Assembly: GCA_963721455.1 (NCBI GenBank)
Contig: CAVRJG010000045.1
Span: 83,365-147,364, forward strand
Direction of reading: 5' to 3'
Length of the DNA stretch: 64,000 nucleotides
Origin: an uncultured Methanosarcinaceae archaeon
GTDB taxonomy: Archaea; Halobacteriota; Methanosarcinia; Methanosarcinales; Methanosarcinaceae
Position numbers and translations under genes: made by a program. Below the pieces are notes generated by a model. It saw nothing but the letters and a program-made list of their open reading frames with translations. It was not told the DNA's origin and did no database searches. Positions 4,582 through 56,200 of this stretch are shown piece by piece; position 1 is the first letter of the stretch; every line of letters starts with the position of its first letter.

Positions 4582-4641
4582 GTGAACAACTCCTCCCTAA
4601 ATTCTTCGCCTTAAGGCTCAGGATTTTGAGGAATGTGGCTT
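4582..4641 (-). mobile_element. Degenerate IS200/IS605-type end (hairpin)
   Basis: gtgaacaactcctccctaaattctt...aggattttgaggaatgtggctt, a variant of the gtgaactaccc end seen at 14506, 43775 and 54712. Confidence 0.55.
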
Positions 4642-14505: not shown

Positions 14506-14555
14506 GTGAACTACCCGCTAAATCAAAAGATTTAACGGGTTTTACGCTTCGTTCT
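14506..14555 (-). mobile_element. 50-bp minimal IS200/IS605-derived element (left and right end sharing one hairpin)
   Basis: Minus strand TTTAT|agaacgaagcgtaaaa-cccgttaaatc-tttt-gatttagcggg-tagttcac; both termini resemble those of the 54712..55100 element. Confidence 0.7.
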
Positions 14556-15280
14556 ATAAAGAATAAAAGTAAGGAACCTGAATAAGGCTTCAGTTAAGTT
14601 TCAGGAAAAAGAAATAATACTGTGTAAAAAATTTGAATTTGAAGCCCTGTATCTACTTAAAATCTCTCATTTGAGAGTTATTTTTCAGCATTTTGTTCCT
14701 TTCTCTGAATTTTATGTTCTTTTTTCAATGTTATGACCCTTAAAGCCATAATTTTAGCAATGGCTATCAAGGGTATCGTTTCAAGCGCATATTTTAGAAT
14801 AAAAGGAAGTGTCTCTTTAAACTGTAAGAAATTTTTTTCTGAGTATTTCTTATGCTCGATGAAAAAACATTGAGTTAAACTGTTATTCGCATATATATTT
14901 CATGAAAAATAGGCTGTTAATCCATAGATTGCAATGGAAATAAAGGGGTATTGAAACTCTCAGGGAAGGGAATAAAAATATGAGAGTGAATGCGTTTATG
15001 AAAATAAATATTTACATACAGTAGGTGGATTATAAGAGGTAAAGCTGCAGACAAAAATACCTCAGCGCCCTTAACAATCGCATCAAAAAGGAAAAGAGAA
15101 ACATCTTCGCATAAAAATGAAAATATGAGAGATAAATTGAAAAACATATAGAAAAGAAACAAAGAAGAGAGAAATGGAAGAAACAATGGTAGTAAAAAAA
15201 ATTAACCCACAAAAGTTTCCAGTGGAAATAAAAGGGTCCCTCTTAGAAGAAATAAAAGAAAATTAAAAGATTCTGAAGAC

Positions 15281-43774: not shown

Positions 43775-43797
43775 GTGAACTACCCCTCACCTTTAAA
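43775..43797 (-). mobile_element. Truncated IS200/IS605-type right end
   Basis: gtgaactacccctc abutting a 5'-truncated gene. Confidence 0.55.
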
Positions 43798-54178: not shown

Positions 54179-54610
54179 GTGAGAAAAGCACTGATTATAT
54201 TGATAGTGTTGTTCGGCGTATTCCTCGCAATAGGATGCGCGGGAGATAAACCGGTAACTCCAAATGAAACCGGGATCCCAGAACAGGCTGTAACTCCAGT
54301 TGAAGTAGTTACTTCAATTGGAGAAAAGGCAACTGAAAGACAGACTGCAAGTGAAATGCAGAATGTGATAGAGAAATCGGGAACAAAAGAATATACACTT
54401 GAAGAACTTGCAGAGTACAACGGTAAAAATGGGAAGGCATACGTTGCCTATCAAGGCCAGGTCTATAATGTCTCTGATAATGATCTTTGGAAAAATGGCA
54501 GTCATAAAGGATGCAATGCTGGGATAGATCTCACTGGAAAAATGGACACGGCACCACATGGGGCTGAAATATTAAAGGGTTATCCTGTTGTCGGGACTTT
54601 GAAAAAATAA
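54179..54610 (+). CDS. Lipoprotein with cytochrome b5-like heme/steroid-binding domain
   Basis: GTG after GGTGA; lipobox LAIGC; YTLEELAEYNGKNG.AYVAY.G.VY.VS..W..G.H..AG.DLT..APHG. Confidence 0.85.
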   Translation: MRKALIILIVLFGVFLAIGCAGDKPVTPNETGIPEQAVTPVEVVTSIGEKATERQTASEMQNVIEKSGTKEYTLEELAEYNGKNGKAYVAYQGQVYNVSDNDLWKNGSHKGCNAGIDLTGKMDTAPHGAEILKGYPVVGTLKK

Positions 54611-54711
54611 CATAACTCTGCAATCTAAGTTTAACTAGGGCTCTCTTAAACTCACTATCAAACTGAAGATTATTTCTCTTTTTTCCGTTAATTAAGGTGA
54701 ATAATGGTTCC

Positions 54712-55100
54712 GTGAACTACCCCCGACTGAAGTCGGAGGCTTCCTACTTCATTCCCCTGCCCAACCGGCAACGAGTCCATAGGCTCTACCCGCAGTCCCT
54801 GCGGTGAAAAGTGTGATCGTGATACTAGAGATACTTTCCAGCTTCCGGTTTTCTCCGGCTTAGAGTTCCCAATCCCTTTGGGTATTTTGCCCTGTTTCCA
54901 GCTTCCCGATGCTTAGTACATTCCGCTTGGTTGTCGCTAATTGAAAGGAATGCACCATTAATAGCGATGGAATTGTGGTGACAGCAATGTATTATATAAT
55001 TGGGCAGGAATATAGAAAAACGTTTGCAGGAGACATATTATGAGAGGGTTGACGGATTCATCCCGCCACTGAAGTGACGGGGATTCTCATTTTTCGTCCT
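54712..55100 (-). mobile_element. 389-bp non-autonomous IS200/IS605 element retaining both hairpin ends and an omegaRNA-like 3' module
   Basis: Minus strand: aggacgaa..ccccgtcac-ttca-gtggcggg (left end), ttatataa, caccgcagggactgcggg..gagcct.tggac..gaagcctccgac-ttca-gtcgggggtagttcac (right end); no tnpA/tnpB ORF. Confidence 0.75.
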
Positions 55101-55471
55101 AAAAAAAGTACATCTTATTTTCTACCTAATTTAGATGTAGGGCATAAATAGTGAGGATAACTGTAAATTACGGAATTAGACAAAGAAAGGAACTACAAGC
55201 TTTCTCTGAGTAAAGAAATAAAGAGGAGGCTATATTTTTACTAATATAGATTGAATACGAAAAATAATAAATATAAAGCATTAAAAATAAAAATTAAAGT
55301 TTATTAAGCGTTTAAATAAGGGTTGAATAATTAAAATACTGTTTTTATTAGGAAAGCAATAAGATTCTATTTAAGCAGCGGAATAAACTTTATAAGCCTT
55401 TAATTAATAATCATTTTGGGGATAATATATTGAGAGATTTATAAAAAGGACGATTTGGGAGTATAACTAAT

Positions 55472-56200
55472 ATGTTTGGGGAAAATGGAACAAACCTGTC
55501 TAAAAAAAAAGATTTCTGGATAGAGTTTTTCGCAGGTAGGAGAGACGGTGGCCACAGATCTTCAGCTGAGGAATTTATTTCCATGGAAGCAAAAGAAAAA
55601 CTATTCCATCTGGATGGAGGCAAAACACTGCTTGACTTTGGATGCGGTGCAGGCGAACTCCTGGTTTACTACGCGCCGGAATATGAAAGAATGGTAGGAG
55701 TTGATTTTTCCGCATCCATGCTTGACGAAGCAAGCAAAAGAATCAAAGAAAGAAAATGTGGGAATATATCATTAATCCAGGCTGATGACAAAACTGTCTG
55801 GAACAAACTGGAATGCTCCTTTGATCGAATAACCGCAGCTGGAGTAATTCAGTATTTGACATTGCAAGAAATTGACAGCTTTATCTTTAATGCATCAAAT
55901 TATCTCAATAAAGGGGGTAAAATAGTGTTGTTCGACATATTGGACCCTCGCCTATACCCATTGTGGAAAATAGGGCTGTTCTCACAAGACGCAGACCTCT
56001 GGAAAATTTTACGCAAAATCGGTTTTGAGTTTAAGGTTATATTATCGGCAAGCTTGAATAATCGACCAAGGGATATTCTAGGGTTTGCCCATGATCCCAA
56101 TACAATTAGAAAAATAGCAGATAAATATGGTTTTGAAACTACTTTTGTAAAATCAATGTACTACGAATACAAGTATCATGCAATAATATCTAAGACTTAA
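55472..56200 (+). CDS. Class I SAM-dependent methyltransferase
   Basis: LLDFGCGAG, GVDFSASML, FDRI and LNKGG motifs. Confidence 0.88.
   Translation: MFGENGTNLSKKKDFWIEFFAGRRDGGHRSSAEEFISMEAKEKLFHLDGGKTLLDFGCGAGELLVYYAPEYERMVGVDFSASMLDEASKRIKERKCGNISLIQADDKTVWNKLECSFDRITAAGVIQYLTLQEIDSFIFNASNYLNKGGKIVLFDILDPRLYPLWKIGLFSQDADLWKILRKIGFEFKVILSASLNNRPRDILGFAHDPNTIRKIADKYGFETTFVKSMYYEYKYHAIISKT

Follow-up and report, generated by a model that had tools for sequence, protein, structure and literature searches.

PATE stands for palindrome-associated transposable element and is, together with standalone omegaRNA element, the name given to the kind of mobile DNA to which the locus described here belongs. 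PATEs are defined, and traced back to core deletion, in PMC3119063, a paper on Haloquadratum walsbyi which predates the recognition of omegaRNA and which, in the sections describing the elements, treats them as DNA repeats only. In the passages of PMC10055086 concerned with such elements, PATEs are stated to 'often encode omegaRNAs' that need the action of TnpB in trans, and PATE-like elements of Geobacillus stearothermophilus are described there. Mobilised standalone omegaRNAs have been found and work in trans, as stated in PMC10691335 with reference to Altae-Tran et al. 2021, and the same portion of that paper notes a high recent mobility of TnpB in Methanosarcina. For Halobacterium salinarum, the relevant part of PMC4615843 describes sotRNAs, which are expressed RNAs located at the 3' end of IS1341-type tnpB genes and possess a stem with a UUCA/UUUA tetraloop, as well as two intergenic ncRNAs (99 and 275 nt) with fused left- and right-end parts and no tnpB. 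Elements lacking tnp genes, whose omegaRNAs act in trans, are hence already published, going by the sections of these reports that deal with them (PMC10055086, PMC10691335, PMC4615843). A partial literature search found no description of the Methanosarcina element family that is the subject of this work.

The element in question is located in a stretch of 64,000 nucleotides from an uncultured Methanosarcinaceae archaeon (the window, by which the whole stretch that was analysed is meant), where it occupies positions 54712 to 55098 or 55100 of the minus strand and constitutes a protein-less IS200/IS605 derivative of 387-389 bp. It is a non-autonomous derivative, devoid of protein-coding capacity, of a tnpB-bearing IS200/IS605 element of Methanosarcina, and it retains the left and right ends, a TATA-like box and a structured RNA gene of ~275 nt. 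Its identification as a PATE with an omegaRNA-type scaffold is close to certain. Open reading frames of 40 aa or more are absent from both strands in 54611-55410; a Pfam search with a read-through translation of the core of one relative gave no match; and a tblastn comparison of two TnpB proteins with the window copy remained at chance level, with 87 of 300 shuffles scoring equally well. Similarly, no Rfam match at the gathering score was obtained across the whole window, and the lone match within 54600-55200, to sR10 (E = 4), is of the level expected by chance. The left-end hairpin, the TATA box, the CACCGCAGGGACTGCGGG hairpin and the right-end hairpin with its end, which had been read from the letters in an initial annotation of this DNA, are all present on the minus strand, and they take their places among the following features:

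55099-55110, minus strand: left flank, a T-run plus AG, forming the target or transposon-adjacent motif region; it ends in TTTAG, or in TTTTT when the AG is counted as element
55048-55098, minus strand: left end, beginning GACGAAAAATGAGAAT, with a hairpin at 55082-55062 that has a UUCA-type loop, and then ATGAATCCGTCAAC
55017-55009, minus strand: second AT-rich box, TTCTATATT
54992-54999, minus strand: TATA-like box TTATATAA, a putative promoter
54973-54987, minus strand: start of the conserved core, TTGCTGTCACCACAA, from which family-wide conservation begins in the alignments
54915-54956, minus strand: long-form expansion stem, GGTGCATTCC / GGAATGTACT, with the loop GCGACAACCAAGC at 54937-54925 (family consensus GCGAAAACCAAGC)
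54845-54907, minus strand: remainder of the tnpB-derived 5' domain, consisting of the GGAAGCTGGAAAC block and two hairpins
54882-54868, minus strand: 5'-domain hairpin CCCAA-AGGGA-TTGGG
54858-54845, minus strand: 5'-domain hairpin CCGG-AGAAAA-CCGG
54712-54834, minus strand: 3' module, an omegaRNA-type scaffold made up of a linker, hairpins 1 and 2 and the right end
54806-54789, minus strand: hairpin 1, CACCGCAGGGACTGCGGG
54788-54773, minus strand: GAGCC..GGAC block
54771-54757, minus strand: hairpin 2, followed by GGGAATGAAGTAGGAAGCC
54739-54720, minus strand: right-end hairpin, with a UUCA-type loop in this copy and UUUA in most relatives
54721-54712, minus strand: terminal GGTAGTTCAC
54692-54711, minus strand: flank readable as a guide, GGAACCATTATTCACCTTAA, directly after the invariant TTCAC

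The arms of the two terminal hairpins (55082-55062 and 54739-54720) are 86% alike as direct repeats, and inverted terminal repeats are not present. The lack of such repeats, the near-terminal palindromes of the IS605 type, the absence of a target duplication and the derivation by core deletion are shared with the PATEs of H. walsbyi as these are characterised in the descriptive part of PMC3119063. With the standalone omegaRNA loci, as outlined in PMC10691335, the window element has in common that it is mobilised, lacks both effector and transposase and has its guide just outside the transposon end, and also that the host genomes hold effector-containing loci; however, it differs from them, so far as that outline goes, in being archaeal, in possessing a TATA-like box of its own and in having a 5' half derived from internal tnpB sequence and not from the 3' end of the gene, and its function in trans is presumed. 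Judged by their text description in PMC10055086, the PATE-like elements of G. stearothermophilus likewise possess ends of the full-length type, lack genes, have kept the omegaRNA and depend on TnpA and TnpB from elsewhere, whereas they belong to another host domain and another sequence family. The UUCA/UUUA loop of the H. salinarum sotRNAs recurs in the right-end hairpin of the window element and its relatives, although genus and sequences are different, and, according to the account of the sotRNAs in PMC4615843, a BRE-TATA is lacking upstream of them, whereas a TATA-like box is conserved here.

That the element is an insertion is indicated by the genomes in which the site is unoccupied. In the closest genome searched (G081), whose flanking sequences are 98% identical, the element is absent and both flanks lie 2 nt apart, the empty site being TTTTTTAG / GGAACCATTATTCACC, with the right part beginning GGAACC. 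Six further genomes of the genus (viz. G069, G063, G029, G071, G003 and G016) also have an empty site with flanks within 3-16 nt, three of them, namely G069, G063 and G029, having been read at the sequence level. As the flanks abut at the same site in these seven other genomes of the genus, the window element is interpreted as an insertion, and comparison of the occupied site with the empty site of G081 reveals no target duplication. For the left boundary there are two candidates 2 nt apart, 55100 and 55098. Because the AG is already there at three empty sites (G081, G063 and G029; it is lacking in G069), 55098 is preferred. Upstream of this boundary, the initial annotation had given TTTAT as the motif; this does not apply to the window copy, which has TTTTT or TTTAG. 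TTTAT precedes 12 of the 12 left ends listed among the 17 others that were found, and some relatives are preceded by TTAC or TTTTT. The atypical TTTTT/TTTAG motif, in place of the TTTAT/TTAC of the family, could block both re-mobilisation and TnpB cutting at the window copy.

The initial annotation had proposed that copies of the 389-bp form be counted and the covariation of its interior be tested, the latter being described further below. The genome to which the window belongs (3.94 Mb, 73 contigs) has a single intact copy of the 389-bp form, together with two degraded relatives (C19 and C3), and elsewhere in it only the ends recur. When a short-form copy was used as query, 37 of 59 genomes of the genus gave a match at E <= 1e-8. 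Matches that include the 5' domain (i.e. extending from query position 62 or before to 177 or beyond) number at least 79 in BLAST searches and are distributed over 27 of the 59 genomes, the count having been made by hand and the copy numbers being lower bounds. Several of these genomes are multi-copy, G030 holding at least 5 copies of 93-100% identity. Beyond the genus, five other families of the order, represented by 24 genomes, gave no matches, and a strict two-block signature searched across 185,579 species returned 18 exact matches, all from Methanosarcina/Methanosarcinaceae/Methanosarcinales save for one Methanobacteriota MAG. The element family is thus Methanosarcina-wide and recently mobile.

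The members of this family are built on a common plan, consisting of target motif, left-end hairpin, AT-rich stretch, core and right end, which was seen in 35 of the 35 further copies that were fetched. The core in the family copies begins with (T)TGCTGTCACCACAA, and the right end GGTAGTTCAC is followed by unrelated flank. Of 40 family copies, 60% or more have a TAATATTA-like box in the corresponding position, where the consensus of the box region (at the same level) is T.TAATATTA..T.TT.CTGTCACCA. There are two length classes and the window copy represents the long form, with ~46 extra nt. The 12-mer GGAAGCTGGAAA occurs twice in the window copy at a distance of 60 nt, as was pointed out in the initial annotation; as a feature of the family this repeat was rejected, since only 1 of 42 family copies has it. 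The genome further contains about ten end-only elements of ~55 nt, each composed of the left-end start, one hairpin and GGGTAGTTCAC, which the 'terminal-only' PATEs of H. walsbyi, as described in the corresponding part of PMC3119063, resemble. Because such end-only mini-elements exist in the same genome, the interior of the element is dispensable for mobility. Three related ends had been proposed within the window, and they are of unequal standing: that at 14506 is a clean end-only mini-element of ~55 nt (E 7.8e-7), whereas at 43775 there is half a hairpin followed by GGGGTAGTTCAC, with no profile match, and the sequence at 4582 has merely a loose similarity to the element ends.

The relationship of the element to full-length transposons can be seen at its two ends. 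The region 55091-55048 of the window (positions 20-63 of a 419-nt query) is 77-89% identical to the left ends of the C66 and C50 tnpB elements, and the right end is 71-79% identical to those of tnpB elements in the same genome, the comparison of ends having taken in C50, C66 and C52. Positions 175-286 of a profile of the core matched, in nhmmer searches, the stretch from the tnpB stop codon to the right end on C50, C66, C46 and C52 (E 2e-17 to 5e-13), and the equivalent stretch following tnpB was matched in 22 of 22 tnpB loci from the genus. Going by this homology, the 3' ~110 nt of the element is the conserved scaffold and right-end part in which the omegaRNAs of TnpB elements lie. The reading of the locus as a tnpB-less IS200/IS605 element is supported, and the full tnpB elements with the same ends, which it was suggested should be sought, are those on C50, C66, C46 and C52.

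Proteins which could serve such an RNA are encoded in the same genome. The initial annotation had named the absence of a cognate tnpB as an observation that would speak against it; intact genes are present, among them the C50 gene, which encodes 370 aa with the domains HTH_OrfB_IS605, OrfB_IS605 and Cas12f1-like TNB. The C50 TnpB aligns with ISDra2 TnpB over residues 3-364, i.e. over its full length (E 1.4e-69), and it was at the level of this protein that the ISDra2 TnpB-omegaRNA structures (PDB 8BF8, 8EXA, 8H1J) were compared. The C46 TnpB has an open frame of 397 aa and is 70% identical to that of C50. Overall, the genome has 12 TNB-domain matches and five matches to Y1 transposases; at least two of the former, C50 and C46, are full-length TnpBs that have an open frame and belong to the cognate clade. 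The C46 tnpA located beside a left end of the family type is broken by a stop and a frame break, and none of the intact Y1 transposase genes (C15, C53 and C39) is near a left end of this family. At a cut-off of E <= 1e-30, the TnpB clade is found in 43 of the 59 genomes of the genus, viz. in 21 of 27 with the element and 22 of 32 without it, counts which, the genomes being kin, do not amount to a statistical test; an association between the element and the TnpB clade across genomes was considered and gave no clear signal. The six element-bearing genomes in which a TnpB of this clade is absent at this cut-off are G015, G065, G033, G072, G022 and G031, and of these G015, G065 and G033 are complete, in one contig each.

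The 5' part of the RNA gene has a different origin. Based on its alignments, the 5' ~165 nt was pieced together from decayed stretches of the tnpB interior, in the neighbourhood of the RuvC-II codons, and this mosaic has been kept as a fold. A profile of this domain has its best match at the RuvC-II codons (..ISENQA..LETLN..) in 22 of 22 tnpB genes, with E values of 9e-4 to 0.65 in 28 kb, these matches being mutually dependent due to the homology of the 22 genes, and the real profile score for C46 and C50 was reached by 0 of 300 codon shuffles. Local-alignment z values range from 0.7 to 4.9 for the zone from RuvC-II to SSK, being 2 or higher in 8 of 12 comparisons; the last 150 nt and the 5' half give values near 0. 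In a MAFFT alignment, two chunks are colinear with tnpB (RuvC-II, followed by AEWFGK..SSK) and the last ~165 nt of the ORF is deleted; in some lineages the last ~15 tnpB codons align too. In ISDra2-type systems, the 3' end of the tnpB ORF contributes the 5' part of the omegaRNA. Because this region of the ORF is absent from the element, the window RNA may be an incomplete scaffold, lacking the last ~165 nt of the tnpB ORF. A different assignment of the 5' domain, to the decayed last ~45 tnpB codons encoding the zinc ribbon, was also considered and was dropped in favour of the RuvC-II/AEWFGK zone. It had come from a tblastn match of 39% identity over 33 aa (E = 0.003) in copy L031, with weaker matches in L029 and L049, and 0 of 300 shuffles reached the L031 and L029 scores; however, L031, L029 and L049 are close, near-identical relatives, three other copies, including that of the window, were at chance level, the z for the last 150 nt was about 0 and Pfam gave nothing. 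The extra 5' domain, which the initial annotation had left unexplained, is in this manner accounted for by internal tnpB sequence. An alignment of the interior to decayed tnpB had also been named there as an outcome that would contradict the idea of a guide RNA, and such an alignment is what was found; nevertheless, the idea survives it, because the remnant shows compensatory base-pair changes and behaves as a conserved fold.

The evidence for this fold comes from the comparison of copies. The pairing-rich interior proposed in the initial annotation is upheld by covariation across 40 copies and not by the folding of the window sequence singly, where z = -1.84 and 9 of 200 shuffles fold equally well, for which reason the stability of the single sequence was rejected as evidence. 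In the 40-copy alignment, 91.8% of cells are paired in the RNAalifold structure versus 83.6% in shuffles, and the covariation score is 0.269 versus 0.131 in shuffles (0 of 500 reaching it) and 0.04-0.07 with slid partners, the structure tested having been predicted from the same alignment that scored it. Changes on both sides are observed in 24 of 61 pairs, the 5'-domain hairpins included, with helix 5 of this domain showing double changes in 3 of 5 pairs and helix 6 in 3 of 4. Helices 10-13 of the 3' module also covary, which supports hairpins 1 and 2 and the right-end hairpin, whereas the proposed long-range helices, with double changes in 0 or 1 pair each, are uninformative in this respect. 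The extra sequence of the 19 long-form copies forms an irregular stem with partial covariation and a near-invariant loop, GCGAAAACCAAGC (GCGACAACCAAGC in the window), which matches the RuvC-II codons in 22 of 22 tnpB genes. Across the copies, the linkers vary while stems and loops hold, and many of the conserved pairs are G-U on this strand (UG in 27 of 40 copies at pair 140-150 and in 25 of 40 at pair 280-290), a richness which suits RNA better than DNA. The interior of the element is therefore a conserved fold, supported by covariation across copies.

Some of the nucleotides from which this fold was derived may also stand out within the full-length genes. In a codon alignment of 22 tnpB genes, the amino-acid-normalised synonymous diversity has its gene-wide minimum at the RuvC-II stretch NQAIALETLNVK (residual -0.18, permutation p = 0.01), a lead that comes from related genes and one statistic and for which selection for codon accuracy at a catalytic motif is a possible confound. 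In the same 22 genes no synonymous dip was seen at the RuvC-I and RuvC-III motifs or in the last 60 codons. The mini-elements keep the RuvC-II stretch as a near-invariant hairpin loop, which persists in copies where it has changed its place, whereas they have deleted the last 60 codons.

With regard to expression, small portions of the stretch are represented in two metatranscriptome runs. The contigs of run X1 lie on flanking genes only, and run X2 contains one 160-nt contig (depth 4.2, 1 other letter) covering 54818-54977, which is wholly within the element. This contig may be RNA, contigs of this kind showing neither strand nor ends, nor whether their source was RNA or DNA. Its end at 54977 is 15 nt behind the TATA-like box and ~8 nt upstream of the start expected from the box at 54999-54992, the usual archaeal spacing from TATA to start being longer than 15 nt. 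In either run, no RNA-library contigs were found on 54614-54761 or 54984-55871, an absence of cover that carries no weight, and no contig crosses the right end into the guide. In all aligned copies the sequence diverges directly after TTCAC, and the earlier proposal that each insertion creates a new guide agrees with this, the sequence at this place being different in every copy. The first 16 nt of the putative guide occur only here in the genome, even when 1 mismatch is allowed, and are identical in the empty site of G081. Because the flank guide is unique in the genome, a role in homing or retention fits better than a host target.

Taking these observations together, we consider it probable that the element acts as a trans-loaded guide RNA, which, as has been suggested for elements of this kind, parasitises TnpA for its movement and TnpB for its retention. 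According to this proposal, TnpA (Y1) made elsewhere would move the element by means of its two ends. Transcription would start behind the TATA-like box and read through the right end into the flank, and this read-through would append a guide of ~16-20 nt predicted to be identical to the insertion site. TnpB supplied by full-length copies (e.g. by the intact 370-aa gene on C50) could then bind the RNA of the element in trans. Should TnpA excise the element, the TnpB-RNA complex would cut the site left empty and resealed, and the element would be restored by recombination with its sister copy. The start of transcription, the read-through into the flank, the binding of TnpB and the cleavage are steps that we infer.

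The same observations can also be interpreted differently. If the element were an inert relic, i.e. a dead internal-deletion derivative of tnpB that is copied by TnpA via its ends and whose RNA, if made, is functionless, then one would look for features such as the alignment of the interior with decayed tnpB sequence, the presence in its own genome of one intact copy and two degraded relatives, the lack of the TnpB clade in 6 of the 27 genomes that have the element and the atypical motif at the left junction, all of which are seen. However, a relic should not have interior hairpins that keep their pairing through changes on both sides, with variable linkers between constant stems and loops, nor a near-invariant loop motif persisting even in the rearranged copies L071 and L080; further, the interior has been kept in at least 79 matches in 27 genomes, though the 55-nt end-only elements move without it. 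In view of this, we regard an inert relic as unlikely. It should also be considered whether the conserved folds serve as single-stranded DNA in TnpA-mediated transposition and not as RNA. The left and right hairpins undoubtedly also function as DNA signals, and IS200/IS605 transposases recognise same-strand DNA hairpins, as stated in the portion of PMC10055086 that deals with them. However, the ~55-nt end-only elements have a single hairpin and no interior, the conserved G-U pairs would in DNA become weak G-T pairs, with A-C mismatches on the opposite strand, and the 3' module lies where the omegaRNA is known to be located; it is thus very improbable that the folds act as DNA.

A further explanation accepts a structured RNA and assigns it a role that is independent of TnpB or antagonistic to it, viz. 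that of a regulatory small RNA, of a decoy soaking up TnpB or of a partial mimic of the tnpB mRNA. This would be in accordance with a 5' domain that differs from the canonical scaffold part taken from the 3' terminus of the ORF, with a loop identical to the RuvC-II codons of tnpB, where the synonymous diversity is at its gene-wide minimum (permutation p = 0.01), and with the persistence of elements in genomes without the TnpB clade. However, the anatomy on the guide side, where the scaffold ends in GGTAGTTCAC right at the flank, is exactly that of full-length elements, and a second match to the flank guide is absent from the genome. Such a role is accordingly doubtful, and a guide RNA loaded in trans by TnpB remains the interpretation that we favour.

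The widespread occurrence in Methanosarcina of mini-transposons that contain only a guide RNA, beside many copies of tnpB, provides a tractable archaeal system in which the borrowing of TnpB in trans, the provision of a usable guide by each insertion and the parts of the RNA that are needed are questions open to study. For annotation, the element accounts for an 860-bp 'empty' intergenic region and for several of the short hairpin repeats in the genome. It is also conceivable, although rather unlikely on present indications, that the element has selectively kept a nucleotide-level module which is also found inside full-length tnpB at the RuvC-II codons (GCGA[A/G]AACCAAGC...TGGAAAC). If this were true, the TnpB elements of this clade would possess a signal, in RNA (or DNA), at a great distance upstream from the omegaRNA as now accepted, serving perhaps for TnpB binding, for processing, as an internal start or for autoregulation, and the mini-elements would reveal which parts of the 3' half of tnpB matter as nucleic acid. 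Together, the mosaic 5' domain and the synonymous constraint in tnpB offer a concrete hint that, in this clade, the functional RNA may be longer than the omegaRNA of the textbooks.

The transposon family to which the 387-389 bp protein-less element belongs has a minimal form, the "end-only" element of ~55 nt, in which TTTAT is followed by the start of the left end, a single hairpin and GGGTAGTTCAC. About ten of these are present in the element's own genome (the window and other contigs), where members of the family longer than these are also found:

Window 14506-14561, minus strand: end-only element
C53:69825-69879: end-only element
C54:48221-48276: end-only element
C33:120344-120396: end-only element
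C46:11084-11136: end-only element
Contigs C12, C25, C39 and C15: end-only elements
C46:63353-65063: IS605-type element, tnpB open, left and right ends of the family type
C19:49765-49933: degraded relative, internal deletion
C3:43619-43771: degraded relative, internal deletion

The Y1 transposase gene of the IS605-type element is broken, with a stop inside it and a shift in its reading frame, and the relative on C19, truncated at its left end, retains a TATA-like box and GCTGTCACTACAA. On the minus strand of the window, one arm's worth of a hairpin comes before GGGGTAGTTCAC at 43775, probably what is left of a truncated right end; the sequence at 4582, GGAGTTGTTCAC, shows only a loose similarity. 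In the closest relative (G081), an unrelated insertion of ~2 kb (L094:734-2755) lies ~30-40 nt to the left of the empty site; its coding content comprises a 308-aa protein built of ...ERPLLKAAALKKAMSEE... repeats in tandem, along with transposase-like fragments.

When synonymous diversity was compared among tnpB genes (genus loci L116-L135 and those on contigs C50 and C46), the gene-wide minimum was found at the RuvC-II codons ..LISENQAIALETLNVK.. (permutation p = 0.01). The omegaRNA is expected to overlap the tnpB ORF across its last 60 codons, and no dip in synonymous diversity was seen there in the same genes.

Some copies of the element are variants. Two of them, both in genome G078, are rearranged:

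L071:108-405: rearranged variant of the element
L080: rearranged variant of the element

In these copies the hairpin displaying GCGATAACCAAGC is located upstream of TTGCTGTCACCACAA rather than downstream, and the motif is nonetheless retained. Further, in L072, L048, L050, L030, L074 and L076-L078, the RNA core is common with the family and the left and right ends are of another type, which has a long GC-rich hairpin (AAGGCG..CCTTCCTCGG type). The joining of one RNA core to two types of ends suggests, from these sequences, that modules have been exchanged between the end types, and thus perhaps between transposases.
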